Shown: positions 16,878 through 58,865 of the stretch, one piece after another
How the letters are laid out: every line of letters begins with the position of its first letter
Position numbering within the stretch: the first letter of the stretch is position 1
DNA from: Bdellovibrionales bacterium
GTDB taxonomy: Bacteria; Bdellovibrionota; Bdellovibrionia; Bdellovibrionales; UBA1609
Length of the DNA stretch: 64,000 bases
Assembly (NCBI GenBank): GCA_028819545.1
Contig: JAPPLG010000019.1
Coordinates: 66,494-130,493, forward strand
Reading direction: 5' to 3'
Notes under the pieces: generated by a model
What the model saw: the letters and a program-made list of their open reading frames with translations, nothing else
What the model was told of the DNA's origin: nothing
The model's database searches: none
Position numbers and translations under genes: made by a program

Positions 16878-16988
16878 AAAATACTTTATATAAGCAACTC
16901 AAAGCTCAGACATGCGGTTTTCCACAGAGTGGACTAGCCACTCTGTGATCAAATCCGAACTCGTTTGAGCCGCTTATACAAAGTATTT
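16878..16988 (+). repeat. H element copy 1 (~110-nt imperfect palindrome)
   Basis: Basal stem AAATACTTTATATAAGC/GCTTATACAAAGTATTT; cores CTCAAAGCTCAGACATGCGGTTTTCC and GATCAAATCCGAACTCGTTTGAG; apical stem CACAGAG-tggactagcca-CTCTGTG. Confidence 0.9.
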
Positions 16989-17271
16989 CATTCCTGTATG
17001 TGTTTAATTCATTCTTCACATGTTAGTTCCCGTTTTTCAAAAAAATCTTACGAAGATATGTGTCTTTTTAAGGTTTTTTAAGGATGCCTTCGATTATTTT
17101 TTATACAACTTTCAAGCTCCTAAGTGGGTTTTATTGATGTCTCTGCATTTACAGTGGGTTATAAAAAGCTTTTTTGTCTGAAATGAAGAGTATTGCTTCA
17201 AAAAGAGATAGACACTGAAGATAAGAAAATATATCTATAAAATTCTCTTTAAACCTAACCTGGGGGCGCTT

Positions 17272-20202
17272 GTGTTTAAACTATCTTTAACTTTTATTTT
17301 GGCTGTATTTGTTCTGCAAGGAGTGTATGCGGAAGATTCGGATATTGAAAGATTCACCGTTACAGGATCTCATATTAAAAGACTGGATCAGGAAGGAACA
17401 ACTCCTATTACAACTATTGATAGAGAGCAGCTTGACTTTTCTGGGGCCAGCTCTTTGGCAGATGTGATTCGTGATTTAAGTTTTGCCAGTTTTGGTGTGA
17501 GTCGAAAATATACTTTGTCAGATAAAAATGGAGGATCATCAGCTTCTTTTAGAGGCCTGCCTAAAGGTTATGTTTTAATATTAATTAATGGAAGAAGAAT
17601 GGCGAATCCGGATCATGATATTAATTTAATTCCGATGTCTGCAATAGAAAAAGTAGAGATTATTAAAGACGGAGCTTCAGCAATCTATGGGTCAGATGCC
17701 ATAGGCGGTGTGATTAACTTTATTACCAAAAGAGGAGATATTGGAGAAACTTTTTCTGTTGGTCTTTACTTGCCTGAACCTTTTGTGCTTCCTAAACAAG
17801 CTCTAAAATTTCAAGGCTGGAAGTCTGAAGAGTGGAAAGATCTTGATAAATTTAAAAACAATATTTTTGGTTTTAAAGGTGGAGAAGAACTAAAATTTGA
17901 TTATACTTATGGTTGGACAGGGGATAATCATCAGACTTTACTAAGTGTGACCGGAAGACTTCAAGAAAATATTTGGATGCAAGATCGTCCTTTTTCAGCA
18001 ATAAACACTGATGATGTATCTTCCTTTGTAAAACACGGAAGCCCTGGTTCTTATGCATTGGGTGGCGGAAGTTTGATGCCTATGAATGATTGTCCTGATA
18101 ATCAAAGAAAAGATGGAGATTGTAAATTTAATCATGCTCCAACCATGCAGTTAGCGCCTAGGGTTGGTTCTTTAGGTTTATTTCTAACAACAGACAGGGA
18201 TATTAATGACGATATGAGTTTATATGCTTCAGGCCTTTTTTCTTATGAGTATTCGAAAGGGCAATTGGCTCCGTCTCCAGACGATATAGTGAAAGAAGAA
18301 ACTGTGAATGTATTAAATACTTTAGGTAAAGATGGTCCTTCACTTTGGAATAACTGGGCAACAGCTTTGGAAAAGGAGAGTAACCTTGGTTTATCACAAT
18401 TAAGTGCATTAAGGTACCGTATGGTGGATGAAAGTGATGGGGAAGGGCGTTTACAGAGCTCGAATCTTATAACAATGAACCTACAGGCAGAGTTAGAAAC
18501 TTATCTTTCAGACAGTTGGAGTGCTCTTGCATACATCAGTAGTGGCAATTATGTCTCCTTAGACAGAAATGGCAATTACTTTAAACTCAGCGAGCTTTTT
18601 GCTCTTCGTGAAGATGGCTTGGCAAAATGGAATCCTTTTAGAACAGATCGAACTCAAAATGATGTGGGTGATGCAAAATATACTACTGAACGTGATGAGT
18701 ATTATTCTGTTAATGTACTGGAGCTAACAGCTTCTGGTGAAATGCTTCCTTTAGGAAGATTTGGAGCTTTAAGTTCTGCTTTTGGCATCAGAGGGGCTTA
18801 CGAGCTTTGGACTGTTGAAGTGGATGAAGATACTTATAATAAAGATTTAAAAGTTGCAAATCAATGGGGCGGGGGCTCTGGTATTGTAGGTGGGGGGAAT
18901 CGTGCTTACAGTACAGCCTACACAGAATTTGTTTTGCCTATGCAGTTGAGTGAATATAGTTCTTTAGAGATACAGTTGGCTGGTAGTTTTGACTGGTATC
19001 AATATGCGGGTATTGCTCAACATGATTCTCTATTTGGAAAAGAATTGCCTTTTAAACTCCCTGTTACTCCAAAACTGTCTGCCAAATGGAATATTTTAGA
19101 TTTCAATATCAGAGGTTCTTGGGGTAAGGGATATAAAGCTCCGGATGTAGGTATTGTCCATTTGGATCACACAAAAGATCATCCTTATGGTGTGGATTAT
19201 TACCAATGTAGGGATGTAGCAAAAGAAAACTGTAAGCAAGCAGGTAATCAATATGAAATGTTTTATTATGGTAATAAAGATCTAAAGCCTGAACATTCAG
19301 AATTTTTAAATCTTGGAGTAACTTTTGAGCCTTCCTCAAACTTAATGCTTTCTTTAGATTATTTCAGAAATGAAATAAAAGGTAGAATTATTAAACCCCA
19401 ATTGAAAGATATTCTTGAAATGCAGACCTATCATCCTGAAAACTTTCCAGCATTTGCGGCAAAAAATAATATAGTTGTTGAAAGAATTGGAGATGGGAGT
19501 CTTCGAAAGATTGATACGAAATACTATAACTTTGGGGATTATAAGTCTCAAGGGCTTGAAGCTAATTTAGCTCTTAGATATCCTGTTTTAACTTCACATA
19601 CAGCTTTCTTGGATTTTCAGACTGTGTACTTTATTGATACTTTTGTTAAGCGTCCTTATTTGGATGAAGATTATATTAGTAAACTTGGGGGTTGGGCTTA
19701 TCCTGCTTATAAAGCACTTGTGCAAGTAGGTATGCAGTACAAAAATGGATTAAAATGGGCTTTAACTTCTCAGTGGGTCAGTCAGTTTAATGACAGTAGT
19801 AGCTCAGAAAGTGCTCCGGATACTGGTTTGGAAAAATTAAATAAATGGGTTAAGAAAAATGTGCTTAATAAAGATGTTACAGAAGGTGTTGAGGCTTGCT
19901 ACACTGAAAGTGCTTGTAAAGCTAATCCAAAGGCTATTGCTCAGGTGCCGGCTCATGTTACTTTTGATCTCACTATTGATACTCCTCTTTCTGCCCTGAA
20001 CAGCTCTTGGAGTTCTAAATCAAGTGTGTTGTTTAGAATTGAAAATATTCTAAATACAGTAACTCCCGATAGTAGAATTATACCTGGAGGTAACCAACAA
20101 CAGACAGTAACAAACGTCAGTGCAATGGGCTTTCAACCAAATGGGATGTATAGTGGAATTAATGGCAGAGCTTGGCAGGTACGATACACTCACAAGTTTT
20201 AG
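17272..20202 (+). CDS. TonB-dependent outer-membrane receptor (976 aa)
   Basis: Signal peptide, TonB-box-like ERFTVTGSHIKR, plug motifs (IRGLP-like FRGLPKGYVLILINGRR, IEKVEIIKDGASAIYGSDAIGGVINFITK) and C-terminal aromatic residue ...RYTHKF. GTG start. Confidence 0.85.
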   Translation: MFKLSLTFILAVFVLQGVYAEDSDIERFTVTGSHIKRLDQEGTTPITTIDREQLDFSGASSLADVIRDLSFASFGVSRKYTLSDKNGGSSASFRGLPKGYVLILINGRRMANPDHDINLIPMSAIEKVEIIKDGASAIYGSDAIGGVINFITKRGDIGETFSVGLYLPEPFVLPKQALKFQGWKSEEWKDLDKFKNNIFGFKGGEELKFDYTYGWTGDNHQTLLSVTGRLQENIWMQDRPFSAINTDDVSSFVKHGSPGSYALGGGSLMPMNDCPDNQRKDGDCKFNHAPTMQLAPRVGSLGLFLTTDRDINDDMSLYASGLFSYEYSKGQLAPSPDDIVKEETVNVLNTLGKDGPSLWNNWATALEKESNLGLSQLSALRYRMVDESDGEGRLQSSNLITMNLQAELETYLSDSWSALAYISSGNYVSLDRNGNYFKLSELFALREDGLAKWNPFRTDRTQNDVGDAKYTTERDEYYSVNVLELTASGEMLPLGRFGALSSAFGIRGAYELWTVEVDEDTYNKDLKVANQWGGGSGIVGGGNRAYSTAYTEFVLPMQLSEYSSLEIQLAGSFDWYQYAGIAQHDSLFGKELPFKLPVTPKLSAKWNILDFNIRGSWGKGYKAPDVGIVHLDHTKDHPYGVDYYQCRDVAKENCKQAGNQYEMFYYGNKDLKPEHSEFLNLGVTFEPSSNLMLSLDYFRNEIKGRIIKPQLKDILEMQTYHPENFPAFAAKNNIVVERIGDGSLRKIDTKYYNFGDYKSQGLEANLALRYPVLTSHTAFLDFQTVYFIDTFVKRPYLDEDYISKLGGWAYPAYKALVQVGMQYKNGLKWALTSQWVSQFNDSSSSESAPDTGLEKLNKWVKKNVLNKDVTEGVEACYTESACKANPKAIAQVPAHVTFDLTIDTPLSALNSSWSSKSSVLFRIENILNTVTPDSRIIPGGNQQQTVTNVSAMGFQPNGMYSGINGRAWQVRYTHKF

Positions 20203-20248
20203 GGGGAGAGTTTTTTAATTGGTTAATAAAAATTAAAGGAGTTTTGGA

Positions 20249-20518
20249 ATGGTAAAGATAAGTATTTTAGCGGTAATGATGTTTACTGCTGGTATAGTCT
20301 TTGGCGGGCAAAATATATCCTGTACTTTTTCAGGAGAAAATAAGGGAACTTATACGGCGTTCTTTAATGATGAAGAAGCAGATGATCTTTATCATCAGAT
20401 TGGTGATCTACAGGCAAGGGAAAAAATCACAATAGACAGTGCTTCACAACAATCGGTGGGACTGCCGTGCCGCAGTGTTGGTCAAGGTGGTGATTTGATT
20501 TGCACAGAAGTGCCGTAA
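20249..20518 (+). CDS. Small secreted Cys-containing protein, paralogue A (89 aa)
   Basis: Signal peptide. The mature N-terminal half is identical to paralogue B and the C-terminal third is unrelated. AGGAG upstream of the ATG. Confidence 0.6.
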   Translation: MVKISILAVMMFTAGIVFGGQNISCTFSGENKGTYTAFFNDEEADDLYHQIGDLQAREKITIDSASQQSVGLPCRSVGQGGDLICTEVP

Positions 20519-20569
20519 ATAAAAAGATAAATTGGTTGTTTTAAAATATAATAAAAAGGGGGTTTTAAA

Positions 20570-20827
20570 ATGATAAAAACAAGTATTTTAGCAGTATTGA
20601 TGTTTACTGCTGGCACAGTCTTGGGCGGGCAAAGTATATCCTGTACTTTTTCAGGAGAAAATAAGGGAACTTATACGGCGTTCTTTAATGATGAAGAAGC
20701 AGATGATCTTTATCATCAGATGGGTGATCTACAGGCAAGAGAGGAAGCCCTGTCTCGAAAATCTGATTCTGACACTCATTTTTATGACTTGTGTGTATTT
20801 ACTGGGACTCAGAGACTCTGTCCTTAA
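20570..20827 (+). CDS. Small secreted Cys-containing protein, paralogue B (85 aa)
   Basis: Same as paralogue A. 20635-20721 is nucleotide-identical to 20314-20400. GGGGG upstream of the ATG. Confidence 0.6.
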   Translation: MIKTSILAVLMFTAGTVLGGQSISCTFSGENKGTYTAFFNDEEADDLYHQMGDLQAREEALSRKSDSDTHFYDLCVFTGTQRLCP

Positions 20828-20966
20828 AACAGTTGTAATGTGATTAAAAAAATTTTTTAGGAAGGAAAAGTATTCCTAAGTGTATAGGGATTTTTATAGA
20901 TTTTGAATGATTATGACCTGTACATCCCTAGCTTTTTTCAAACCTATTGAATGAAAAAGAGATTTT

Positions 20967-21968
20967 GTGTTGAAACTTTTGTTTTGTTTATTTTTATTGT
21001 TTCCTGTTTCCTCTTATGCAGAGGAGACCGCTGATTCTGTTATCAAAGCTCAAGCAGGAAATGATAGAGAGGCGGCTCGTTCTCAAGAGCGTATTTCCAG
21101 AATAGTTGATCAGAAACAAAATATTGTAGAAAAGTATCGGGAAACTCTAAAAGAAATTGATGAAGCCCGTGAGCATATTGAACAATATAGAAAACTTATT
21201 GAAGATCAAAAAAAAGAAAAAGTTTCTATTCGAAATCAAATCTATGAAATCGAAGATACAGATAAAAAAATTATTCCTCTTATGCTGGAAATGCTGAAAT
21301 CCCTGGAAAATTTTGTTCAACTGGATATTCCTTTTCTAAAAGAAGAAAGAGCTAAAAGAATACAGGATTTAAAATCCATGATGGATCGATCGGATGTAAC
21401 CACTTCAGAAAAATATCGAAGAATTTTAGAAGCCTATACCATTGAAAATGCCTATGGACGTTCAGTAGAGGTTTATCGGGATCTGCAAGAGGTGGATGGA
21501 AAAGAGCTGACTGTGGATGTACTTCGAATAGGACGTATCAGTCTTATTTATCAAACTCTTGATGGTGAAAAAGGGGCCTACTGGTCCAAAAATCAAAAAC
21601 AATGGATAGAATTACCCTCCAGGTATGATAAAGCTGTTGCCTCAGGCATAAAAGTGGCCAGAGAACATGCGGCTCCTAACTTTGTGATTACAATGGTTGC
21701 AGGAGCTGTAGATAGAGCTTTTTCTCTAATGGAAAAAGCAGTTTTGGAAGAAACATCTGATTCAGAAAATGCTAACGGGGAAACAAAAACTGAGAAAAAA
21801 AATAATGAAGAGATAAAAATTGAAGAAGAAAAGAATGAAGAGGTAAGAACTGAAGAGGAAGGTTCTAAAGAAGAAAACCCAGATAATACAGAAAAAAGCA
21901 ATGAAGACACTACTACAGAAAGTGTCGAAGCGGATGAACCATCTAAGACAGCAGGTGAAGATCAATGA
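20967..21968 (+). CDS. Periplasmic coiled-coil protein (DUF3450/TtpB-like) with a long acidic tail; first gene of the TonB2-type cluster
   Basis: Signal peptide and heptad-rich N-terminal half. It sits directly upstream of a long MotA/ExbB gene with an ATGA overlap, as in Vibrio TonB2 clusters. The assignment rests on context and composition only. Confidence 0.5.
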   Translation: MLKLLFCLFLLFPVSSYAEETADSVIKAQAGNDREAARSQERISRIVDQKQNIVEKYRETLKEIDEAREHIEQYRKLIEDQKKEKVSIRNQIYEIEDTDKKIIPLMLEMLKSLENFVQLDIPFLKEERAKRIQDLKSMMDRSDVTTSEKYRRILEAYTIENAYGRSVEVYRDLQEVDGKELTVDVLRIGRISLIYQTLDGEKGAYWSKNQKQWIELPSRYDKAVASGIKVAREHAAPNFVITMVAGAVDRAFSLMEKAVLEETSDSENANGETKTEKKNNEEIKIEEEKNEEVRTEEEGSKEENPDNTEKSNEDTTTESVEADEPSKTAGEDQ

Positions 21969-23811: not shown

Positions 23812-23814
23812 ATA

Positions 23815-24216: not shown

Positions 24217-24220
24217 AAAA

Positions 24221-24829: not shown

Positions 24830-24835
24830 TTAAAA

Positions 24836-25192: not shown

Positions 25193-25220
25193 GGTCTTCG
25201 CTTGAGATGGAGAGATTTTT

Positions 25221-28761: not shown

Positions 28762-29378
28762 ATTTTGCCATTTTGAATTTTAATAACTTTCTGGGATAGA
28801 TTTTTAATATCCTCCGAGTGATGGGATATTAACAGAGCAGGTATTTTATAGTGTTCAACCATTTGCTGTACTATTGAAGAAGCTTTCTTTCTGTTCTCGT
28901 CATCCAAGGAGGAAAAAGGCTCATCCAAGAATAGGATACGCGGGCGAGTCACTAAAGCACGAGAAAGGGCTACTCTTTGAGCCTCCCCTCTTGAAAGTTC
29001 GCTGGCTTTTTGATGAATGATGGGGGTTAGGTCCAAAGATCGAGTTAAAAATTCTAAATCTTTTTTCCAATTTTTTGTGGATATTTCTCCGGCAAATTGA
29101 ATATTTTCATAAGCTGTCATATGAGGAAATAACTCCAAACTTTGAAATACAAAACCAATTTTTCTTTCTTTTATAGGAAGTTGAGCTAAATCCTGTTTAT
29201 TAAAAATCCATTGAAGTGACGGGCAGGAATCTAATCCTGATAAAATTCTTAAAAAAGAAGTTTTACCTGCACCGGAGGGGCCAATAAGAGATGTAATGCC
29301 CTGATCAGGAAGGTTCAATTCAGGAATATCTATGACAAATCTACCGTATTTTTTCTTTAAATTTTTAATAATGGACAA
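28752..29378 (-). CDS. thiQ: ABC transporter ATPase, short ThiQ-like type
   Basis: Walker A GPSGAGKTS, signature LSRGEAQR, Walker B LFLDEPFSSLD. The 208-aa length and the context with a two-module permease and a binding protein suggest thiamine/iron(III)-type import. Confidence 0.6.
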   Translation of the reverse strand: MSIIKNLKKKYGRFVIDIPELNLPDQGITSLIGPSGAGKTSFLRILSGLDSCPSLQWIFNKQDLAQLPIKERKIGFVFQSLELFPHMTAYENIQFAGEISTKNWKKDLEFLTRSLDLTPIIHQKASELSRGEAQRVALSRALVTRPRILFLDEPFSSLDDENRKKASSIVQQMVEHYKIPALLISHHSEDIKNLSQKVIKIQNGKIQK

Positions 29379-29476
29379 TTTATTTCCTTTGTTTTGTTAT
29401 TGTATCTATTCCTGTACTTATGAAATTTATTTTGTCTTTTTTTGGGAAAAGAAGCAAAATAAACCATCCGCAGTAT

Positions 29477-29655
29477 GAAGAAATGTTTTACATACAAACT
29501 CAAACTGCAGACATGCGTTTTGCCACAGAGCGAATTAATGAGGTGCCAACCGATAATCAGCGAAGTGATGAGGTGCCAACCGAAATCACTGAGCCAGCAG
29601 TACCGCCTGTGATCAAATCCGAACTTGTTTGAGTTTGTATGTAAAGCATTTCTTC
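29477..29655 (+). repeat. H element copy 2, long variant with a ~70-nt internal insertion carrying two L-type units
   Basis: Basal stem GAAGAAATGTTTTACATACAAACTCAAAC / GTTTGAGTTTGTATGTAAAGCATTTCTTC (one mismatch). Cores CAGACATGCGTTTTGCCACAGAG and CTGTGATCAAATCCGAACTTG. The insertion holds ATGAGGTGCCAACCGA twice (29538, 29568). Confidence 0.85.
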
Positions 29656-29718
29656 TTAGTTTCGATTGGCCTTGTGCTTTGTAGTCGAACTTATTTATTT
29701 TCTTGTCTGCAAAATATC

Positions 29719-31173
29719 TCACTTCCTTTCTACCATAATACCAATAAAAGAAGGTATTTTTCTAAAAAAAAGAAAACATAAACTACCTATAAAAAGTAAA
29801 ATCCAAATGAGAGCCAATCCTTGTTCAGTCCTATATCTTTCCAGTAATTGTTGAGCAGTAATAGCCAGATTTGTATTTCCCTGTGAAGTGATCATTGTAT
29901 AGGCAAAATCTCCTGAAGCCCAAAAACCTGCTATTCCTCCCAGGAGAAAAAATGAAGGGGCACATTGAGGCCAGATGATTTTCTTAAAAATGTGTGTCTT
30001 GTCAGCTCCTAAAGTTTGGGCTGTTTGAATTTGATTTTCTAAACTGTATAGAAAAGATTCTCCAGCCCACCTATAAAGAGAAGGTAAAAATAAAATAATT
30101 AATCCGCATATCCAGGCCATATAAACTTGATCATTCATAAAAATTAAGAAAGAAAAGCCTGTCAGAACAATACTTGGAATGGCATATCCAATCAGGAATT
30201 TTTTTAAGTAAGAAATAGAACTGTAAAAGGAGATGAGAATAAAACAAAAAATAATTCCTGCTCCAACAGATAAAGATAAAAAGAGTGTTGCTAAAACAGC
30301 TGTCATAAAACCTGTTAACTTTAAAACCTCAGGTATATAATAAAGCCCCTCTACAAATCCAATGATAATAAAACATATTGGGAGTAATCCAAAAAGGACA
30401 TTCTTTTTTATATGAGTGTAAGGTAAAGGTCTAAGTTTTTTTAAGTAAGATATAGGTTTAAAGATGAAAAAAGATAAAATAAAAATACATAAAATTTCAA
30501 TAGATAAAAGACCTAAAGCTATAGGCCATTCATTAGGGTTTTTAAGATAATCATAAATAACTACTTCTAAAGTTTTTCCAGAGTCCCCGCCTAAAAGTAG
30601 AGGAAGGCTGAAGCTGGTTAAACAAAAACAAAAAACAGTTAAACTTATAAGTTGAACATCCCTTTTTAATACAAATCTGAGCAGTACTGTTAAAAGTTTC
30701 CAGAGCGGCAGGCCGTGTACAACAGCCCATTCACAATAAGATGCAGTTTTTGACATCAGCAGACGAGCTAGAATAACAGCCATTCCTCCGGCATAGGTTA
30801 TGGCATGGCCGAGTACAATAGGTGTCAGTCCAAAAGGGTTGATGGATATGTATTCAAAGATGTTGATTATACTGCCTGCGATGACCAAAGGAGGAAGAAA
30901 AAGTGGAAGTAAATAAGCCCATTCCAGAAAGGAGTAAAAAGGACGTTTGTAGAAAGCAGTCAATCCCAAAGAGGCTGGAAGAGCAAAAAACCAGCTTATA
31001 ACAACACTGAGAAAAGCTTGAAAAAATGTAAAAGAAAAACATGAAATAATCTTGGAGTATTCAGGTAAAGCAAATTCCTTAACTTTAAGAAGAAAGACAA
31101 TGAAGGGAAAACTCACGCTTAAAATTAAAGCAACAGGTAGAAAGTGTTTCTGAATAATTTTAATAAAAGACAT
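29719..31173 (-). CDS. thiP: ABC importer permease with two fused transmembrane modules (ThiP-like)
   Basis: 484 aa, ~12 hydrophobic helices. It lies between the binding-protein and ATPase genes and overlaps the binding-protein gene by 14 nt. Confidence 0.6.
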   Translation of the reverse strand: MSFIKIIQKHFLPVALILSVSFPFIVFLLKVKEFALPEYSKIISCFSFTFFQAFLSVVISWFFALPASLGLTAFYKRPFYSFLEWAYLLPLFLPPLVIAGSIINIFEYISINPFGLTPIVLGHAITYAGGMAVILARLLMSKTASYCEWAVVHGLPLWKLLTVLLRFVLKRDVQLISLTVFCFCLTSFSLPLLLGGDSGKTLEVVIYDYLKNPNEWPIALGLLSIEILCIFILSFFIFKPISYLKKLRPLPYTHIKKNVLFGLLPICFIIIGFVEGLYYIPEVLKLTGFMTAVLATLFLSLSVGAGIIFCFILISFYSSISYLKKFLIGYAIPSIVLTGFSFLIFMNDQVYMAWICGLIILFLPSLYRWAGESFLYSLENQIQTAQTLGADKTHIFKKIIWPQCAPSFFLLGGIAGFWASGDFAYTMITSQGNTNLAITAQQLLERYRTEQGLALIWILLFIGSLCFLFFRKIPSFIGIMVERK

Positions 31174-37622: not shown

Positions 37623-37813
37623 ACAGGTTAAAATAATGATATTTAAAATAAGCTGTACTTGTTCCCATAAGGAAATACTTAATGTCCATCCTGTTAGCCA
37701 GACGGATATTGCAATAATAAGGGTTTTAGGGCGAGCCGCTAAAAAGTAACTTTTAAAAATATTAAGTTTTCCTTGTTAGGAATAATTTGGAAGAATATTA
37801 AAGAAATTGTCTT

Positions 37814-38428
37814 TTACTTTAAAGCATTTTTTTGACTGAAAAGCATATTGTCTTCTATTCTATCAACTGGAGAGGGCTCTGCTGTGACGTCTTCTTCTTC
37901 CAGATTGGAAGGGTCCATATCTTCATATAAGATAAAAACCTGTTCTTCCCCTTCATCAATAACTTCCGGTGGAACTCTTTCAATAAGGTCTTCCAGTTTA
38001 CGTTGAGAAGCTACATGACCATTATCAGCTGAAATTTTAAACCAGGCATAAGCTTTACTTAAATCCATGGGCCCTCTTATACCTCGTTCGTAATAGCTGG
38101 CTAAAAAATATTGTGCATTTGCATCTCCACGAAGAGCTTCAAATTTATAATGATCTCTTTTATCTCCTAATGCTGATAATTTTTCTGTTAATTCATGGCC
38201 TGGAGGAGGTGTTGTAAAATCAAAACGATGTTCCACATAGTGGTAGTAATAAGGACATGGCCCAAATCTTCTAATATGAAAACCCGCAGGGTCACGGCAT
38301 AAAACCCCTCTGGAGTAATAAGGGCCTCCTCTATAAATATAAACAGGGGTATCTATTTCATTTGTTGGATTTGCTTCTTCTGAAATCCCATAAACGGGCA
38401 AGAGCAATAAAAGAAAAATATACTTCAT
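37814..38428 (-). CDS. Secreted Sel1-repeat protein
   Basis: Signal peptide; GDANAQYFLASYYERGIRGPMDLSKAYAWFKISADNGHVASQ matches the Sel1 consensus. Confidence 0.7.
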   Translation of the reverse strand: MKYIFLLLLLPVYGISEEANPTNEIDTPVYIYRGGPYYSRGVLCRDPAGFHIRRFGPCPYYYHYVEHRFDFTTPPPGHELTEKLSALGDKRDHYKFEALRGDANAQYFLASYYERGIRGPMDLSKAYAWFKISADNGHVASQRKLEDLIERVPPEVIDEGEEQVFILYEDMDPSNLEEEDVTAEPSPVDRIEDNMLFSQKNALK

Positions 38429-38574
38429 TTTACTCCCCTTATTTTTGATAGGATTCTACACCAATTTGCTTCAATTTACAAAAAAGACTGTAAGTCTGTG
38501 AAATAACTTAAATAAAGCTATTGTCTGTAATAAAAAAATGGTGGGTAAAAAATCATTCAGTCGTCTGCACTGCT

Positions 38575-38655
38575 TTGTCGTTATTCCTTTATGTGTTTAA
38601 ATCATTCCAGACTTACTTACTGTCATTCCTGTATAAGTCATTCCGATATGTAAAA
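38575..38655 (+). repeat. Array of five (G)TCATTCC-ending degenerate direct repeats (spacing ~15-22 nt) leading into P1
   Basis: tattcc 38583, cattcc 38602, 38624, 38639 and 38658, read directly. Confidence 0.6.
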
Positions 38656-38683
38656 GTCATTCCGGACTTGATCCGGAATCCAG
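38656..38683. repeat. Palindromic unit P1: GTCATTCCGGACTTGATCCGGAATCCAG
   Basis: Perfect 8-bp stem ATTCCGGA/TCCGGAAT with loop CTTGA; matches the copies at 16714 and 60628. Confidence 0.85.
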
Positions 38684-38689
38684 CGCTAG

Positions 38690-38799
38690 AAAATACTTTG
38701 TATAAGAGACTCAAGGCTCAAACATGCGGTTTGCCACAGAGTGGACTAGCCACTCTGTGATCAAATCCGAACTCGCTTGAGCCTCTTATACAAAGTATT
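38690..38799 (+). repeat. H element copy 3
   Basis: Perfect 18-bp basal stem AAATACTTTGTATAAGAG/CTCTTATACAAAGTATTT. The cores and apical hairpin are identical to copy 1. Confidence 0.9.
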
Positions 38800-38863
38800 C
38801 CAGCTTGAAGAACCTGCACTGTTGAGCGAATGTTTTCAATAAAAAGACAAAGTGGACAAAACC

Positions 38864-38969
38864 CCTTACAAATACAGCTCAAAGCAAGTTCGGCTTTGAA
38901 CACAAATCAGCTGACAGTTGATTTGTGGCAAAACACATGTCTGAAGCTTTTGAGTTATATTTGCAAAGG
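38864..38969 (-). repeat. H element copy 4 (reverse orientation, more diverged)
   Basis: The reverse complement reads ...CTCAAAAGCTTCAGACATGTGTTTTGCCACAAATCA-actgtcagc-TGATTTGTGTTCAAAGCCGAACTTGCTTTGAG... It has the same cores and a different but perfectly paired apical stem. Confidence 0.8.
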
Positions 38970-38997
38970 ATTGTCCATGCTTCATTTAAGAAAACTT

Positions 38998-39816
38998 TTA
39001 TGGATAACGTGGAAACTTGGAAAAATCAGGAGGTCTTTTTTCTAAAAAAGCTTTGTGGCCCTCTTTAGCTTCTTCACTAAGGTAGTAAAGAAGAGTGGCG
39101 TTTCCAGCTAAATCTAAAAGTCCCATTTGTCCGTCACAGTCTGCATTGAGAGCTGTTTTTAAACAGCGAAGAGCTAAAGGTGAATGTTTTAAGATTTCAC
39201 GGCACCATTTGAGTGTTTCTTCTTCAAGTTGTTCGTAAGGCACCACATGGTTTACAAGCCCCATTTTTAAGGCCTCCTGAGCTGTATATCGACGGCAGAG
39301 ATACCAAATTTCACGGGCTTTTTTTTGACCTACAATGCGAGCTAAATAACTACTCCCCAACCCCCCGTCAAAAGAGCCCACACGAGGCCCTGTTTGTCCA
39401 AAAACAGCGTTCTCTTCAGCAATAGTCAGGTCACAAACCACATGCAGGACATGACCTCCTCCAATGGCAAAACCTGAAACCATAGCGATCACAGGTTTTG
39501 GCAAACTTCGAATTTGTTTCTGTACATCCAAGATATTTAAGCGGGCTGTTCCCTGATCGTCTTTGTAGCCTCCTTCTCCACGTACCTTTTGATCCCCTCC
39601 TGCGCAAAAAGCTTCTTTCCCTTTTCCTGTTAAAATCACAACCCCAATAGAGGAATCATCTCTGCAATGGTCAAAGGCTTGTTTTAACTCTGTCACAGTA
39701 AGAGGGCGAAAAGCATTTCTCACTTCTGGACGGCAAATGGTAATTTTTGCAACACCATCTTTGGTTTTTTCAAGTGAGATATCTTGATATGTTTTAATGG
39801 ATTGCCAGATTTTCAT
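38998..39816 (-). CDS. menB: 1,4-dihydroxy-2-naphthoyl-CoA synthase
   Basis: Crotonase fold motifs [11 protein letters not shown] and [19 protein letters not shown]; C-terminal tail typical of MenB; 272 aa. Confidence 0.9.
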
Positions 39817-44802: not shown

Positions 44803-44919
44803 AGAAATACTTTATATAAGAGGCTCAAAGCTCAAACATGCGTTTTACAGCAGAGCAGGCTAATGCCCGCTCCGCGATTAAAGCCGAACTCGTTTCAGTC
44901 TCTTATATAAAGTATTTCT
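44803..44919 (+). repeat. H element copy 5, immediately 3' of the mglA stop
   Basis: Basal stem AGAAATACTTTATATAAGAG/CTCTTATATAAAGTATTTCT, compensated A-T where other copies have G-C. The cores are conserved. The apical stem is different and GC-rich (GCAGAGCAGGC...GCCCGCTCCGC). Confidence 0.85.
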
Positions 44920-48999: not shown

Positions 49000-49012
49000 A
49001 GGATATTTGATC

Positions 49013-50021: not shown

Positions 50022-50158
50022 TCTTAAAAAAGATATTTTTACATTTTCAGTTTTCTGCATGGAGTAGAAGACGATATCCGGTATTTCACATTTAAAAATA
50101 ATTCATGTTTTTTATCAAAAAATGCTCTTTCCTAAACTCTGAGTATGGCAAATACATA

Positions 50159-50887: not shown

Positions 50888-50890
50888 GAA

Positions 50891-51448: not shown

Positions 51449-51457
51449 AGGCTAACC

Positions 51458-52168: not shown

Positions 52169-52191
52169 GAGAGGCTCCTTGTTTCAATCTC

Positions 52192-52821: not shown

Positions 52822-52853
52822 TGGTTTTCCTTGAATAGTGAATTTGAAAAATA

Positions 52854-53762
52854 TTATTTTTCAGATGAAGGCTTGCTTTCTTCTGTTTTTTCCGGAGTGC
52901 TTTCCTTTTCTATTTCCATTGCAATTTCAACATCTTCTGCTGTACCAACTGCAACCAGTTTACGGCTTCGAAACACTTGCACCACACCTGAAGCTCCTGC
53001 GTTTTGCACGATATCTTTTTTGGAGTCTTTACTTTGTTGAACAGGCTCTTTGCTTTCCTGATTGCGGGTTTTGGACTGCCAATTTTTATAACCTTGATCA
53101 CAGGCTTTACCTACTTGTTCAACGAAAAATTGAATGGAGCGTATAGAATCATCGTTGCCTGGGATAGGGTATTGAATTAAATCAGGGTCACAATTGGTAT
53201 CTACAATAGCCACAACAGGAATTCCTAATTTATTTGCTTCAGCAACTGCAATGTTTTCCTTATTGACGTCAACAATAAAAAGAGCTTGAGGAATATCTTT
53301 CATTTCTCGAATGCCTTCCAGGTATTCGTTCAGTCGGTTTTGTTCTTTATCTATTTGGCCTCTTTCTTTTTTCGAATAGCGGTCTAAGTCTCCTCTGTCT
53401 CTCATTTGATCAATTTTTTTCATACGATCAATACTCATTTTAATTGTCTGAAAATTTGTTAGAGTGCCTCCAAGCCAGCGTTTGTTAACATAAAATTGAT
53501 TTCTTTTCTGAGCCTCTTCTTTAATAAGAGCAGAAGCTTGTTTTTTTGTTCCGACAAACATGATATGTCCGCCGTTTCCCACCATTTCTTCTATGAAATC
53601 CAAAGCTTTTTGAGCCATAACCCTTGTTTTCTCCAAATTGATAATATGGATGCCTCCTTTGGGGGCATACACATAAGGTTTCATTTTTGGGTTCCAGCGG
53701 TGAACCTGATGGCCAAAATGAACTCTGGCATTCAGCATATCTTCAAGACTGATCTGAGACAT
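52854..53762 (-). CDS. rpsB: 30S ribosomal protein S2 with an extended charged C-terminal tail
   Basis: [27 protein letters not shown] and [12 protein letters not shown] at 53762 is preferred to the track start at 53801. About 60 extra C-terminal residues are rich in E/K/S. Confidence 0.9.
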
Positions 53763-53838
53763 ATAAACCTCTTGGCAGGTAAAAGATCTTCTTCCTATCA
53801 TGTCTTTTTATGGAAGGCAAGCTTAGTCATAAAGGCTT

Positions 53839-55785
53839 TTATACGGGATCCCTGTTTATTTGCCAGGCTGATGAAGGCTTTTGCCAGATAAATTCACATA
53901 CTTTATGAAGGTCTTCTGTAGAGGATGACTTCAGCAGAATGTGGTAGCGGTATTTGGAACGTAGTTTAAATATAGGTGCTGGAGCCGGCCCTAAACACTG
54001 GACGTTTTTTGTTTGAATGGCTGTTGAAAGATTTTTATGGATTTTTTTTGCTAGAGCCAGGGACTGATCTTTTTTAGCAGAGCTGGTTTGAATTAACGCC
54101 AGTCGGGTAAAAGGAGGGTAGTTTAACTGTTTTCGAAATTTCAATTCATGAGAGGTCATTTTTTCAAATTCCAGATGGGCTCCTGTTTGAATAGCGGGGT
54201 GATCAGGATTGTAAGTTTGAATGATCACTTTTCCAGGATTAATACTGTGTCTGCCTGCACGCCCTCCCATTTGGGCAATCAATTGGAAGCATTTTTCGGT
54301 AGAGCGAAAATCCTGGGTGTGTAAAGCCAGGTCAGCCAATATAAATCCCACTAAATTTAGTTTTGGGAAATCAAGTCCTTTAGCAATCATTTGAGTGCCG
54401 ATTAGAATATCAGTTTTTCCTTTAAGCATTTGTTCTACGATGGACTGAAACTGACTGGCAGAATGGATGTGATCACTGTCAGCCAGTTGTATGTTGGCTT
54501 TTGGAAATAATTTTTTTATTCCTTCAAAAACGGATTCAGTTCCGACTCCTATGTGCATAATATCCTGTGCAGGATGGCATTCCGCCTGAAGGCTGTTTAT
54601 AGAGTAATTGCAATAATGGCAAACCAGGTATTTGTTGGCATGAAGAACCAGAGATATATCACAGTGCGGACATTTTAAATGAGATCCACAGTAAGAGCAC
54701 AAGGAGAGAGAAGATTGTCCTCTACGATTGAGGAATAAGGCAGATTGTTCTTTTTTTTTCAGTGCATTTTTTAAAGCTTGAAAGAGCTCTTCACTCAGCC
54801 AGAACGGGAGTTCTTTATTTTTTTGTTTTTTTAAATCCACAATGCTCATCTGAGGCATGGGGTAACCCCTCACTCTTTTTTTCAATTGATGATATTGATA
54901 CCTTTTTGTCTGCACATTATGCCAGGTTTCCAGACTGGGGGTTGCTGAGCCTAATACAACAGGAATATTGTATTTATGTCCCAGCATAATTGCTGAATCT
55001 CTGGCATGGTATTTAAGTTTTTCTTCTTGCTTAAAATGGCTTTCGTGTTCTTCGTCCACAATGATCAATGATAAATTGGGTATAGGACAAAATAGAGCAG
55101 AACGCGCTCCCATTAAAATCTTTTTTTTTCCTTCTATGGTTTGAATCCAATTCATTTGTTTTTTGCTTGGGCTCATTCCGGAATGAATCAAAGCTGTTTG
55201 ATCAGGGAAACGTGCAGAGACTCTTTGAAACAGTTGGGGTGTTAAGCTAATTTCAGGCAGAAGAAAGAGCACACTTTTATCTTGTTGGATGATATTTTCC
55301 ATCAAATCCAAATACACTTCTGTTTTACCGGAGCCTGTCACCCCATGCAAAAGGTGTACTTTAAATGTGGATATTTTTTGAATTTCAGAAACACATCTGA
55401 GTTGATCTTTATTTAATTGGAGTTTTTTTATATCTGTTGATGTGTTGGATGGATTTAAACTGGATTGTTTTTTTCTCTGTTTGTCAGATAAGGGAGGAGT
55501 AAAACAAGAGGATGTCACCATACCAATGGGATAAAAATAATACTGTGAAAGCCAATTAAGCCATTCCATTCGAATGGGATCTAAAGGAGGAATATCATTA
55601 AAAACTTTTAAAATCTCTTTGGATTCAAAATCAGGTTTTTCTTCCATTTGAGAAAGAACAAGGCCTATAATTTTCTTTGACAGGAGAGGGACTTCAACAA
55701 ATCTTCCTGCTGATATCACCTGTGGACTGCAATAAGTCAGAGGTTGTCGGAGAGGTTTTGGAACAGCGATGTTGTAGTAATTCAT
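53839..55785 (-). CDS. priA: Primosomal replication-restart helicase PriA
   Basis: Walker A GVTGSGKTE, DEEH box and Cys-rich zinc insertion (CSYCGSHLKCPHCD...CHYCN). Confidence 0.85.
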   Translation of the reverse strand: MNYYNIAVPKPLRQPLTYCSPQVISAGRFVEVPLLSKKIIGLVLSQMEEKPDFESKEILKVFNDIPPLDPIRMEWLNWLSQYYFYPIGMVTSSCFTPPLSDKQRKKQSSLNPSNTSTDIKKLQLNKDQLRCVSEIQKISTFKVHLLHGVTGSGKTEVYLDLMENIIQQDKSVLFLLPEISLTPQLFQRVSARFPDQTALIHSGMSPSKKQMNWIQTIEGKKKILMGARSALFCPIPNLSLIIVDEEHESHFKQEEKLKYHARDSAIMLGHKYNIPVVLGSATPSLETWHNVQTKRYQYHQLKKRVRGYPMPQMSIVDLKKQKNKELPFWLSEELFQALKNALKKKEQSALFLNRRGQSSLSLCSYCGSHLKCPHCDISLVLHANKYLVCHYCNYSINSLQAECHPAQDIMHIGVGTESVFEGIKKLFPKANIQLADSDHIHSASQFQSIVEQMLKGKTDILIGTQMIAKGLDFPKLNLVGFILADLALHTQDFRSTEKCFQLIAQMGGRAGRHSINPGKVIIQTYNPDHPAIQTGAHLEFEKMTSHELKFRKQLNYPPFTRLALIQTSSAKKDQSLALAKKIHKNLSTAIQTKNVQCLGPAPAPIFKLRSKYRYHILLKSSSTEDLHKVCEFIWQKPSSAWQINRDPV

Positions 55786-56513
55786 CTGATATTTTGATAA
55801 AAATGTTTAATCATCTCAATATCTCCATGTGAGACTTCCCATTTATTGGATTTTAATGAGTGATTCCATTGTTTTTTAATTGCTTCCAGATGAGTGACTT
55901 CCATAGTGACTTCTATCTCAGGGGATTTGTATGTTCTTTTTTTTGGAAACAAAAGGCCTCCTGTATATATTTGATAATTTTCAGCAGTCAAAACAGCAGT
56001 GTTTCCCATAGCAATTTTTCTTACGACAAAATTATCCTGTTCGATCCATACAGCCTGTTCTTTTTTTCTAAAAACATAGTTCACCATACCTAAAGCTCTA
56101 CCTAACTTTACTTTTTCAATGGAGTTCAGCCATGCCGGACGCATATTTTTTCGAAAGAAATAAGATTCAATATAATTTTGTTTTTTGGATTTTTTTGCTT
56201 TTCCTGACATCCAGGTTTTATAAAATTTTTTATATATAAAATTTAATTTCAACTGAGGGTGTTCTGTACTGCGGACTTGTAAATAAACTCGATTTGCATA
56301 TTTCCACCAGGTTTCTTTCAGTTGAAATGTGTCATCCAGTCTGGAGCGGTCTAAAAATAGTATGTTTTGAGAAATTTTATAGTTTTTTGTTCCTTGATTT
56401 CTATCTAAGCGGCTGAGAATCATCTCAGTTGTTGGAATGTAGGCTGTAGTTTTTAAACAGAGCCCTGCAAGTAGAATGCAAATAAGAGTTTGAATAATTT
56501 TCACTGTAAGCAC
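55782..56513 (-). CDS. Secreted hypothetical protein (LolA-like fold is only a guess)
   Basis: Signal-like N-terminus; 4-nt overlap with priA. No motif recognised. Confidence 0.3.
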   Translation of the reverse strand: MLTVKIIQTLICILLAGLCLKTTAYIPTTEMILSRLDRNQGTKNYKISQNILFLDRSRLDDTFQLKETWWKYANRVYLQVRSTEHPQLKLNFIYKKFYKTWMSGKAKKSKKQNYIESYFFRKNMRPAWLNSIEKVKLGRALGMVNYVFRKKEQAVWIEQDNFVVRKIAMGNTAVLTAENYQIYTGGLLFPKKRTYKSPEIEVTMEVTHLEAIKKQWNHSLKSNKWEVSHGDIEMIKHFYQNIR

Positions 56514-56591
56514 CTTTGTTCTTAAATGGAATTTGTTGTTGGAATGTACGATTATTTGTATAACTAATCAAATGGTCCTGAATAATTTTGT

Positions 56592-57833
56592 TTGAACTGT
56601 CAAAAATTGATTTTTTTTGATTTTTATGGGAAAATTTTCTTTATTCAAGGGGTAAATTCTTTGTTTCGTTATATATGTCTTTGTCTTTTGCTATCTATTT
56701 GCCTGGGGCTTTTTGCCTACTGTGTGCCTTCACTTTATACGGTTCAGGTGGGCTCCGAGAGCGTAAGCGACGGAGGAAACACTGATGACTATGATGATTA
56801 TTATGAAGGGCAAAATCCGGAAGACTTTGAATGTGATCCGGATGACGACACCAATTGTGATAATGAACATGTGGATGAGATGGATATGCCTTATGATATG
56901 TTAATGGACACTGTTTCTTATTTGACCTGTGATTCAAGAAATCTTCCTGATGACACTTTTGCGTTTAAAGTGGAGGCTCTCAGAGAAGGAGGAGTGCGGC
57001 TAAGAGCAAAGTTTGGACAAATGGAAGAAAATGAAATTAAACAGTACCCTTATCATAGAAGTTATCCTGCTTTAATTCCTATACCTCCCAGATGGTGGGT
57101 TCACCCTTCCACTGAGGTTCAATACCCTGTACCGGGTCGATTCGGCGCTTTGCCGTCTATTGAATTAGAAGATTATTTGGATGATTTTTTAGAAAACGGA
57201 AAAATTTTTAAAAAAGAGTTTGGCAGGGATCATATTCAGCTGGGTTGGAAAGCTAATTTAAATTTAAGATACAGTTTACAGAGCTTGCTTGAGGCCAGTT
57301 ATTTATTGGTGAGCTTTTATCATGCAGGCCGCGGGTCTTCTCTTTTGGGGTATAGGGACTTGGATGGTGATAGAGAAACAACTCATGGAAGATATTATAG
57401 GGTGGATTTAAGCGAAGAAGAGCAACAATACACTTTGTCGGATATTACAGAACGATATGAGTTCAGAACAGAAAAAGAAAATTCATGGAGTTGTGGTCTG
57501 CGGTTTAAAGTCAGAAGACACGATGATCATAGGTATGTTGGGGGCGGTCAGCCTGCAGAGCCTGGATGTGAAGACAATGATGATGGCAGTGCAATTTACA
57601 GACTTGTTCGACAGGTGCTTGGAGACGATTGGAATATTGATCCGGAGGAATATTGTGTTTCTCTTAAAAATCGTAGAAAGTCTTGTTACAGATATACAGA
57701 AAATATACATCAGGGCACCAGGAATATAAATAATGGCAAGGGCAGAGTGGATCACTTTGACTGCACTGGAACTGACATTCTCCGTCTTTGTCCTCATTAC
57801 TTATCTATTTGCACACGGGCCAGGGTGGAGTAA
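56592..57833 (+). CDS. Secreted Asp/Cys-rich hypothetical protein; start uncertain
   Basis: Hydrophobic leader LFRYICLCLLLSICLGLFAYC, acidic tract DDYDDYYEGQNPEDFECDPDDDTNCDNEH, and many Cys spread through the sequence. Confidence 0.4.
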   Translation: MNCQKLIFFDFYGKIFFIQGVNSLFRYICLCLLLSICLGLFAYCVPSLYTVQVGSESVSDGGNTDDYDDYYEGQNPEDFECDPDDDTNCDNEHVDEMDMPYDMLMDTVSYLTCDSRNLPDDTFAFKVEALREGGVRLRAKFGQMEENEIKQYPYHRSYPALIPIPPRWWVHPSTEVQYPVPGRFGALPSIELEDYLDDFLENGKIFKKEFGRDHIQLGWKANLNLRYSLQSLLEASYLLVSFYHAGRGSSLLGYRDLDGDRETTHGRYYRVDLSEEEQQYTLSDITERYEFRTEKENSWSCGLRFKVRRHDDHRYVGGGQPAEPGCEDNDDGSAIYRLVRQVLGDDWNIDPEEYCVSLKNRRKSCYRYTENIHQGTRNINNGKGRVDHFDCTGTDILRLCPHYLSICTRARVE

Positions 57834-57924
57834 ATAATCAAAAACAGCTTTTTCCATTCCGGTATTTATCTAAATTAAATCGTTCGATTGTACTCATTGT
57901 AAAAATCATTTAGAAAGCTTTGAT

Positions 57925-58632
57925 ATGAAGATTTTTATGCTTTTGTGTGTATTTTCTTTTGCGCCGGTTGTGTACAGTCTGCCTTTGCCTTTATCGTCTT
58001 CTTTGGGAAATTCAGGCAGGGCGGGATACGGTTCTGCAGATTATCATATATTAAATTCAGCCGCGTTATTGCATGGGAAAATGTATCAAGTTTCAGGTTT
58101 TTATTTTTTTGAAGGGAATGAAAAAATATATGGGGGTTCTCTCACAAACAGTAGGGATATACCTATAGGTTTTACATGGTTAAGATTGAGTCCGACAAAT
58201 ACCTATCAGGTTCTTTCTATAGCCGGTAGATTGTCTCAAAAGTTTTTGATGGGTATAGGTATCCATCGCTATTCAGAGCAAAATGAATTTTTTCCTCACC
58301 TGGGTATTCTTTATAAGCCTATTGAGAAATTAACTCTTGGTTTTACCGGGGAGCGAATACAAAGCCGTATGAAATATGGGATGGGTGCTCGTTTTGTTTT
58401 TACAGAGTCATTTATCATTCAGGGAGATGCAGTGTACGATCAGGATATACTCTCTTTTGGAGGTGGTGTGGAATTTATTACAGAAAATAAATTTTCCATT
58501 CGTTTGGGGCAGGTGTGGCCTGACCCTTCTTTTCGTATAGGAGTCAGCTTTAATGGATATCCGATTAAATTGGATTACACCTGGGTTCAAAAACAGGGGC
58601 ATACTGTTGGCATCCGTATTGAATCAGAATGA
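57925..58632 (+). CDS. Putative outer-membrane beta-barrel protein
   Basis: Signal peptide MKIFMLLCVFSFAPVVYS and alternating beta-strand pattern with Gly/aromatic girdles. Confidence 0.4.
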   Translation: MKIFMLLCVFSFAPVVYSLPLPLSSSLGNSGRAGYGSADYHILNSAALLHGKMYQVSGFYFFEGNEKIYGGSLTNSRDIPIGFTWLRLSPTNTYQVLSIAGRLSQKFLMGIGIHRYSEQNEFFPHLGILYKPIEKLTLGFTGERIQSRMKYGMGARFVFTESFIIQGDAVYDQDILSFGGGVEFITENKFSIRLGQVWPDPSFRIGVSFNGYPIKLDYTWVQKQGHTVGIRIESE

Positions 58633-58669
58633 ACCTCCAACATCGTCACCCATGTTGGTTTACGGGTAC

Positions 58670-58693
58670 GTCACCCCTGCGGAGGCAGGGGTC
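58670..58693. repeat. Palindromic unit P2: GTCACCCCTGCGGAGGCAGGGGTC
   Basis: Perfect 7-bp stem CCCCTGC/GCAGGGG; same leader GTCAC as the copy at 16816. Confidence 0.8.
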
Positions 58694-58750
58694 CCAAACT
58701 CTTTTGCTTGCTGACAGGGTTGTCAAGGTGAAAAAGTGTAAGATCAGGAT

Positions 58751-58865
58751 GAAATACTTTGTATAAACAGCTCAAGGCTCAAACATGCGTTTTGCCGCAG
58801 AACAAACTTTCAGTTGTTCTGCGATCAAAGCCGAACTCACTTGAGCTGTTTATACAAAGTATTTC
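58751..58865 (+). repeat. H element copy 6
   Basis: Basal stem GAAATACTTTGTATAAACAGCTCAAG/CTTGAGCTGTTTATACAAAGTATTTC; conserved cores; apical stem GCAGAACAA-actttcag-TTGTTCTGC. Confidence 0.9.

Follow-up and report, generated by a model that had tools for sequence, protein, structure and literature searches.

The 64,000-nt stretch of DNA analysed here (contig JAPPLG010000019.1 of assembly GCA_028819545.1, positions 66,494 to 130,493; hereafter the window) lies on a metagenome scaffold of 167 kb (ROBB21-1_SAMN13943215) from a Bdellovibrionales bacterium. It has about 36% G+C, its closest protein relatives are found among Bdellovibrionales, and a scan of the window for tRNA and tmRNA genes gave none. 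Between its genes are dispersed six copies of an imperfect palindrome of about 115 nt, which we call H (Table 1). Six copies had already been reported in an earlier examination of the letters without database searches (the sequence-only reading), and both a renewed reading of the sequence and a covariance model (CM) of H built from 67 family members recover exactly those six, with 69-107 bits. The left core and the right core that they were said to share match six times each in the window, while 0.4-0.5 occurrences are expected by chance and none of 100 shuffled sequences reaches six (0/100). The copies also fold far more stably than shuffled sequences on both strands, with z values from -4.7 to -13.2. 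Copy 2, which is located between an ABC permease gene and an ATPase gene, both on the minus strand, is a long variant: its apical loop holds an insertion of about 60 nt with two GGTGCCAACCGA motifs, and its arms belong to a different subfamily. Both this insertion and the apical and basal stems of the copies had been drawn correctly. All the copies are intergenic, as had also been claimed; the sole open reading frame (ORF) that overlaps one of them, 29357-29722 on the minus strand at copy 2, is probably spurious, judging from the fact that its block is missing from a relative, L200, with 91.5% nucleotide identity to the window. The density of H in the window lineage thus amounts to about one copy per 10 kb.

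The structure of H becomes clear when the family is aligned. Inverted arms, of which the median length is 27 bp and which are 93% complementary but variable in sequence, enclose an internal loop, conserved as CTCARACA in its left strand and as AACTCR in its right strand. Then follows an inner helix of 8 bp, in which TG(C)GKTTTG with a bulged C faces CAAAKCCG and one T.G pair is invariant, and a short CC / GYT junction connects this helix to an apical hairpin, typically CACAGAGCGAC-loop-GTCGCTCTGTG. The two K residues of the inner helix face each other as T.G in 79 copies, G.T in 39, T.T in 28 and G.G in two, and never as a Watson-Crick pair. The cores had been described as unpaired, with only partial pairing between them; the two loops are indeed unpaired, but TG(C)GKTTTG and CAAAKCCG form the 8-bp helix. 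The apical hairpin co-varies, with, for example, GC in 71 copies and AU in 47 at one pair, and UA in 61 and CG in 56 at another. Among 142 distinct copies, standard pairs occupy 89.4% of the stem cells in the alignment, compared to 65.7% after shuffling and 36-51% when the partners are slid against each other; cells changed on both sides number 1558 versus 485 in shuffles, and 92-94% of the cells in the arm columns are paired. The family alignment therefore bears out the earlier description of a sequence-conserved asymmetric core whose stems retain their pairing through double changes. The outer stems do differ between copies, as had been stated; however, they are related within subfamilies and not arbitrary, and the arms fall into 37 clusters, most of which are genome-specific. 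Derivatives with internal deletions and chimeric derivatives are present, as well as 55 solo half-cores. We also considered that the core was inserted into pre-existing palindromes, and rejected this idea because hairpins consisting of the arms only were not found for four arm types.

How far is such an element distributed? A scan with the two-core pattern through 185,579 species genomes, with one genome for each bacterial or archaeal species, gave at least 116 loci, and 115 among the matches listed come from 14 metagenome-assembled genomes (MAGs) of Bdellovibrionales/Oligoflexia. The single listed match outside this group lacks arms and is a chance match. The listed loci and the window together contain 164 copies with both cores, and the CM finds 160, so that the family has at least 160 copies. 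The MAG names APA, CAR1, RHO and IP30 may denote sponge hosts. As a negative control, 80 unrelated metagenome loci (0.85 Mb), retrieved through a DnaX-like protein whose relatives there show at most 49% identity, contain no H, and no match to H was obtained in IMG/VR viral contigs or in plasmid and phage collections. The window gives zero matches to Rfam (Rfam 15) at the gathering threshold. When three H-bearing loci are searched in E-value mode, only a spurious long-hairpin match to MIR831 emerges, with 32 bits versus 100, and a literature search for four core strings returned a chance primer match only. Without a match in Rfam and with its core strings absent from the searchable literature, the family appears to be unnamed, in agreement with the sequence-only reading. 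From these searches, H appears to be an undescribed repeat family that is, among the matches listed, restricted to one clade of uncultured Bdellovibrio-like bacteria. Its density and its subfamilies vary strongly between genomes. It is to be noted that the core is about 90% identical between the window and the H-bearing genomes, while orthologous proteins of the latter are only 44-63% identical to those of the window; ExbB of the H-bearing OZ242172, for example, shares 47% of its residues with the window ExbB.

The closest relatives of the window, which were reached via homologues of three window proteins and their contigs, tell a different story. They comprise ten syntenic loci, L198-L207, with a total of 196.6 kb from at least six genomes. 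L200 is collinear with the window from 11.1 to 32.3 kb, L201, L202, L203, L198 and L199 show 83-75% nucleotide identity to the window, and L204-L207 are collinear with the window around 46-64 kb. The H CM finds zero matches in these 196.6 kb, and all the six sites are empty there. At the site of copy 1, the spacer between the glutaredoxin and TonB receptor genes carries a block of 511 nt (16497-17008) in the window versus 72 nt in L200; at that of copy 2, the permease-ATPase spacer carries a 294-nt block (29396-29690) versus 9 nt. The region with copies 3 and 4 (37742-38998) is without aligned counterpart in L198, in which menB and menA (UbiA) abut. For copy 5, 328 bp separate mglA from rseP in the window versus 55 bp, without H, in L198. 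The two genes on either side of copy 6 overlap in L204-L207 or have no more than 225 nt between them, again without H, versus 2055 nt in the window. The simplest reading of these alignments would be that H arrived by horizontal transfer and then burst in the window lineage, because the genomes which have H are distant and yet share such similar cores, while the sisters are free of it. The alternative would be repeated loss of H in all the sister lineages.

What, then, keeps the stems paired? The sequence-only reading had taken the co-varying stems as a sign of selection on structure, either as an RNA or as a DNA hairpin recognised by a protein, rather than of passive decay of a miniature inverted-repeat transposable element (MITE). 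In the RNA form of this explanation, H would be a host-selected, cis-acting structured RNA which, for example, stabilises mRNA, marks a site of processing or binds a protein at a 3' or intercistronic position, as has been proposed for ERIC. It would have spread by duplication, with the loop as the functional part and the stems as scaffolds. The strong conservation of pairing with its many double-sided changes, the conserved unpaired loops, the invariant G.U that the inner helix forms on the plus strand, and the position of several copies just past stop codons or within operons would all be expected of such an RNA. Relative to ORF-based neighbours, 36 of the 104 classifiable copies are co-directional (sense) and 24 are antisense to both neighbours, which is a mild excess of the former, but another 24 copies lie in convergent spacers and 20 in divergent ones. 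The orientation bias is thus only weak, and divergent (promoter) spacers are not avoided. H orientation also agrees with the local GC skew in a ratio of 73:44, and this concordance probably reflects the gene strand; a bias of H toward one replication strand was rejected, because the GC skew of 8-kb surroundings flips too often to mark replichores. Scans with consensus promoters and terminators around three window copies gave sites at chance level only, and a role of H as a terminator was rejected for this reason and for the lack of depletion from divergent spacers.

Mismatches in the stems bear on the same question. A helix selected as RNA should tolerate G.U pairs preferentially on its own strand. 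In H, the inner helix forms G.U only on the plus strand while the apical stem mostly shows A.C on the plus strand, that is, G.U on the minus strand, so that the wobble preferences contradict each other and no single strand is favoured. As the counts of wobble pairs among all arm mismatches (53 versus 109) are confounded by shared descent, we relied on singleton stem mismatches, which are seen in one copy only and represent independent recent events: 13 of them are plus-strand wobbles, 14 minus-strand wobbles and 52 non-wobbles. Selection on the RNA is therefore unsupported by these counts. Further information comes from one H copy that is retained at an orthologous site of two species (L068 of RHO3 and L099 of CBDETO), whose flanking genes share 83-95% protein identity. 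Such retention might be taken as a sign of function in the host. When the two loci are aligned by their flanks, however, the arms are co-located but the core is inverted between the two species, so that the copies are oppositely oriented. In each copy the apical stem is of the variant found in its own genome, and the differences between the arms are symmetric, including an indel of 1-2 nt that is present on both arms. This pattern fits DNA-level copying or recombination between arms or copies, and not point mutation followed by compensation at the RNA level; symmetric arm changes, the two-arm indels among them, need not involve RNA selection, since templating of one arm by the other at the DNA level can produce them. 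Moreover, H is dispensable, as its absence from the closest relatives and the six empty sites there tell, and it corresponds to no Rfam family. Taken together with nesting of repeats and hits by insertion sequences (ISs), the weak orientation bias, the unbiased mismatches, the flipped core and the empty sites leave without support the inference that co-variation in H reflects RNA selection and speaks against a MITE. Nothing found here favours a structured-RNA role for H, and we regard such a role as quite improbable.

Presence/absence polymorphism, nesting, interruption by an IS, a flipped core and a weak orientation bias are the marks of mobile or selfish DNA. We consider it rather likely, though far from certain, that H belongs with the non-autonomous, selfish palindromes of the MITE, REPIN, Correia or ERIC kind and is mobile DNA that has recently invaded the genome represented by the window. 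It would spread within the genomes of its Bdellovibrionota clade, which is known only from metagenomes and some members of which may come from sponges, and probably also between these genomes. The genome-specific arm subfamilies fit bursts within genomes. Its asymmetric core of about 57 nt might be a cis recognition module for a putative trans-acting enzyme; if so, this would explain why the core stays about 90% identical across genomes of such divergent proteins. H would be handled as a hairpin or a cruciform, and only copies with complementary arms would propagate. Copying or recombination between the arms at the DNA level would keep their symmetry and allow the core to flip in place. Indeed, template switching at quasipalindromes and recombination or inversion between inverted repeats are established mutational mechanisms. 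When H is co-transcribed with a gene, its stem will also form in the mRNA and may alter mRNA stability, but this would be a side effect and not the reason for its persistence.

Several observations are at odds with H being a selfish palindrome of this kind. Comparison of a paralogous empty unit and of aligned subfamily flanks revealed no target-site duplication and no consistent target motif: the paralogous unit without H has sharp junctions and no flanking direct repeat, and at the 29.5k site of the window merely an imperfect similarity of about 20 nt surrounds the 294-nt mosaic block. Neither an autonomous parent, in which the left core, an ORF and the right core would follow each other so that the halves of H form its ends, nor, among the multi-copy genes, one of the Y1/RAYT type was found in 0.8 Mb of DNA (8-kb blocks around H copies). 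The extreme conservation of the core, with its invariant G.T and with the T.G / G.T / T.T position that never becomes Watson-Crick, would also suit a single strand of RNA or DNA that is folded and to which a host factor binds, and one copy is retained at the same site in L068 and L099. The absence from relatives rests on 197 kb and not on whole genomes. Finally, a comparison with L200 is possible at two sites, and at both the extra DNA, of 294 and 511 nt, is a mosaic that exceeds H in length; H therefore came with or beside other repeat modules and not as a clean insertion of the hairpin only.

A more specific possibility is that H is the cis element of a new hairpin-dependent mobilisation system, in which the core is read in a folded single strand or a cruciform and one arm is templated anew from the other at each move. 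This would explain the perfect but fast-changing arms, the symmetric indels, the flipping of the core, the lack of target duplications and the spread between distant lineages of the clade, and the enzyme might possibly be a PD-(D/E)XK nuclease that recurs near the copies, either YhgA/Rpn-like or Hjc-like. We think that this is unlikely. It is also conceivable that H is a host DNA site, bound for example by a topoisomerase, a recombination protein or a nucleoid protein in the way proposed for REP/BIME, and that it is kept for chromosome function. The core is indeed conserved whatever the transcriptional context, the arms are capable of cruciform formation, and there is the weak concordance with strand composition; but a site of this kind should hardly be absent from the closest relatives, differ so strongly in density and subfamilies from genome to genome, or include so many decayed, truncated and interrupted copies. 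This explanation is very improbable in our view.

Another line of evidence concerns the company in which H is found. A second repeat family consists of small hairpins of the form GTCATTCC(S)-loop-(S)GGAATC, which resemble dRS3 of Neisseria. In CBDETO these hairpins match the neisserial dRS3 consensus ATTCCC-N8-GGGAAT exactly and flank H in the arrangement [dRS3]-linker-[H]-linker-[dRS3], and one CBDETO locus contains a 258-bp tandem array of [dRS3-like]-[H]-linker. Over the family, dRS3-like hairpins are found within 150 nt of H in 33 of the 164 copies, versus seven expected. Some H copies carry such a hairpin nested in their apical loop, the same place at which the long variant of the window has its different insertion. 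Within the window, dRS3-like hairpins form clusters with H, and so do repeats of the motif GGYGCCARCCGR, of which seven are present versus 0.3 expected, always inside or beside H clusters. It might thus be that H is a module of NIME-like mosaic arrays, moved by recombination at dRS3-like hairpins or by homologous recombination with incoming DNA instead of by transposition of H as such, and that the arrays, as sites of recombination or landing, promote gene exchange. The mosaic nature and the excess length of the extra DNA at the window sites agree with this, and so does a gene-bearing block of 2 kb, absent from relatives, with an H cluster at one end and a dRS3-like hairpin at the other. On the other hand, APA, CAR1 and CBDATD are rich in H but lack dRS3-like hairpins throughout 276 kb; H is therefore independent of these hairpins. 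In dispersed pairs within the CBDETO and CBDATD genomes, similarity usually stops about 30 nt to the left and about 27 nt to the right of the core, that is, at the arm ends, which suggests that H is its own unit. Recombination of arrays also leaves the conserved core beside variable arms without explanation. We judge this origin unlikely.

How does H compare with known systems? Like MITEs, H is small, non-coding and multi-copy (at least 160 copies), has inverted arms, and shows insertion polymorphism between related genomes; unlike them, it has no target-site duplication, no termini conserved across subfamilies, and, in the 0.8 Mb, no termini shared with an autonomous IS. Correia elements (CREE) of Neisseria have a TA target duplication, and transcripts of their hairpins are cut by RNase III. 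They resemble H as intergenic palindromes of about 100-155 bp with long inverted arms and with both full-length and internally altered variants. There is, however, no sequence similarity, and the termini of Correia elements are conserved, whereas those of H are variable, its centre is conserved and asymmetric, and a duplication is not detectable. Correia elements abound in small genomes and are found alongside IS elements within NIME arrays, and no transposase is known for them (PMC1797815). The definition of NIMEs and a recombination hypothesis for them are given in the same work (PMC1797815). With the RS elements of NIMEs, H shares the location between ATTCCC-N8-GGGAAT hairpins in CBDETO, and partly in the window, and the occurrence of tandem arrays interrupted by an IS; an RS element, however, which is 50-150 bp long, is defined by its flanks only, while H has its own conserved structure and is abundant in genomes without dRS3-like hairpins. 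In the case of REP/REPIN-RAYT systems, the common points are hairpin repeats, genome-specific groups, clustering into mosaics (BIMEs) and the role as a target of IS110-family elements. Recognition as folded single-stranded DNA, as with REPs, would explain the conserved mismatches of H, but H lacks a GTAG-type terminal motif and forms one long hairpin with an asymmetric core instead of two inverted REPs of 20-40 nt. ERIC/IRU elements of Enterobacteria and Vibrio are imperfect palindromes of about 127 bp with long variants that carry internal insertions; their compensatory changes have been discussed as evidence of RNA structure, and copies in transcribed regions have been reported. The sequence-only reading had likened H to them, which is a fair analogy since both are imperfect, intergenic palindromes with insertion-bearing long variants. 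Compared by description, they differ in host phylum, and H is also found in divergent spacers with weak orientation bias. The searches of Rfam, plasmids, phages and the literature gave nothing that connects H to ERIC. An integron attC site was excluded, since RYYYAAC ... GTTRRRY boxes are absent from the consensus on inspection and since H copies occur in both orientations and are mostly single.

H thus adds an undescribed and well-delimited family to the orphan palindromic repeats of bacteria, such as Correia and ERIC, whose mobilising machinery is still sought, and its layout, a conserved asymmetric centre within fast-evolving symmetric arms, is unusual. As an H-bearing lineage stands beside at least six collinear sisters that are free of H in the regions seen, phylogenetic profiling for a partner enzyme becomes feasible. 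There is also a caution for annotation: co-variation of stems in a multi-copy palindrome alone is not evidence for a structured RNA. In 2007 the dRS3/NIME architecture was stated not to have been seen outside Neisseria (PMC1797815). An architecture of this type appears in Bdellovibrionota MAGs, in addition to an IS110-family element for which H serves as the landing site.

Table 1. Positions of the H copies, of the parts of copy 6, and of neighbouring features in the window and in other loci
Feature	Sequence	Position	Strand	Remarks
H copy 1, short form	window	16877..16990	+	CM 94.5 bits
Glutaredoxin-like ORF, neighbour of copy 1	window	16100-16456	-	
TonB-dependent receptor gene, neighbour of copy 1	window	17272-20202		
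H copy 2, long variant	window	29478..29654	+	CM 69.2 bits
H copy 3, short form	window	38689..38802	+	CM 99.6 bits; dRS3-like hairpin 38656-38680 directly 5'
H copy 4, opposite orientation	window	38858..38974	-	CM 94.4 bits; third arm type (CCTTTGCAAATATAAC...)
H copy 5	window	44803..44919	+	CM 98.5 bits; begins 13 nt past mglA stop codon, upstream of rseP
H copy 6	window	58750..58866	+	CM 107.1 bits; left edge of ~2-kb block 58633-60686
Copy 6, left arm (outer stem)	window	58751..58776	+	pairs with 58840-58865
Copy 6, left conserved loop GCTCAAACA	window	58777..58785	+	family consensus CTCARACA; conservation profile
Copy 6, inner helix 5' strand TGCGTTTTG, C bulged	window	58786..58794	+	pairs with 58826-58833; near-invariant pairs, two G.T positions
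Copy 6, apical hairpin GCAGAACAA-loop-TTGTTCTGC	window	58797..58822	+	fold
Copy 6, inner helix 3' strand CAAAGCCG and right conserved loop AACTCA	window	58826..58839	+	
Copy 6, right arm (outer stem)	window	58840..58865	+	fold
dRS3-like hairpin GTCATTCCGGACTTGATCCGGAAYC	window	16714-16738	+	
dRS3-like hairpin GTCATTCCGGACTTGATCCGGAAYC	window	38656-38680	+	
dRS3-like hairpin GTCATTCCGGACTTGATCCGGAAYC	window	60631-60655	-	
dRS3-like hairpins	L060	600-4000		
dRS3-like hairpin	L012	~2230		
dRS3-like hairpin	L014	~6850		
GGYGCCARCCGR motifs	window	16770-16781, 29542-29553, 29572-29583, 58900-58945, 60587-60598		
IS110-family element	L060	1544-3043		
IS110-family element	L063	~4060-5640		
IS110-family element	L082	~5120-6610		
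IS110-family element	L023	~60-121		
Hjc-like family	L046	4169-6781		
Hjc-like family	L004	1997-2671		
Hjc-like family	L087	3951-4301		
Hjc-like family	L082	4044-4769		

The IS110-family element just mentioned is about 1.5 kb long and consists of a gene for a 335-aa DEDD transposase (PF01548 + PF02371) and a non-coding region of about 400 nt 3' of the gene. Three CBDETO loci carry this element at exactly the same point of the left core of H, CTCA^CARACATG, and in an APA contig the end of the element adjoins that point. The element is thus an insertion into H and not the parent of H. REPs are known targets of IS110-family elements (PMC11208160; 10.1101/2025.01.17.633520). A match to the target, TTTGAGAC, is present in the 3' non-coding region, so that a guide may be encoded there.

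Some smaller repeats accompany H in the window. The block 58633-60686, of about 2 kb and absent in four syntenic relatives, contains a few small ORFs, mostly on the minus strand (e.g., 59903-60352). A small hairpin, H copy 6 and a tandem repeat of 17 nt form its left boundary, while a GGTGCTAACCGA motif and a dRS3-like hairpin close the block on the right. In the tandem repeat (58901-58958), GGYGCCARCCGR forms about four units of GCGCCAGCCGAACAGTA. A small hairpin repeat, GTCACCCCTGC-RRAG-GCAGGRGTC, is found at about 16816-16839 and at 58670-58693, where it precedes H copies 1 and 6 by about 40-55 nt. A further motif, GTTCACTAATTYGCTGACARAAT at 59070-59092 of the window, is common to the distant CBDETO, where it directly precedes H (left flanks of L013, L020, L061, L110 and L117), and may be counted as one more module that the mosaic repeats share.

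Genes recurrent near H encode YhgA/Rpn-like proteins (PF04754; 13 cases), an Hjc-like PD-(D/E)XK family (11), a DUF4143 ATPase and an rve integrase, and none of them is established as a partner of H. In OZ241921, YhgA/Rpn-like genes each have the same short repeats behind them and, beyond these, a co-oriented H copy, in tandem (L058 2375-8000, L085 3501-4610 and L027). As a universal partner the YhgA/Rpn-like gene was rejected, because this fixed order of gene and then H is limited to OZ241921 and is inconsistent elsewhere. Fragments of the 3' end of the YhgA/Rpn-like gene also precede H-like arms with a different centre. Members of the Hjc-like family are about 210-240 aa long with a weak Hjc-like / NERD / DUF234 (PD-(D/E)XK) signature, and their 11 copies are distributed over five genomes. 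Several of them have H directly downstream, and in L046 three tandem paralogues are separated by H copies.

Inside ORFs, 23 H copies are found; these ORFs are short or 5'-extended, and none of seven tested has a Pfam family. In OZ251448, several copies lie in ORFs of 228-325 aa without Pfam match (L029 2530-3507, L042 3621-4442, L101 2473-3306 and L006 681-1367), which may be spurious read-through or in-frame insertions of the RPE type. Two loci of the relatives also deserve mention. In the 83%-identical L201, gene calling breaks the ABC transporter operon, which in the window is the host of H copy 2, into several short pieces (17072-18987), and these may come from pseudogenisation or from indel errors of long reads. 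In L199, the mglA-rseP spacer holds an insertion of 4.3 kb (7383-11742) with ORFs of 138 aa and 1152 aa without a Pfam family on record, and this spacer looks like an insertion hot spot.

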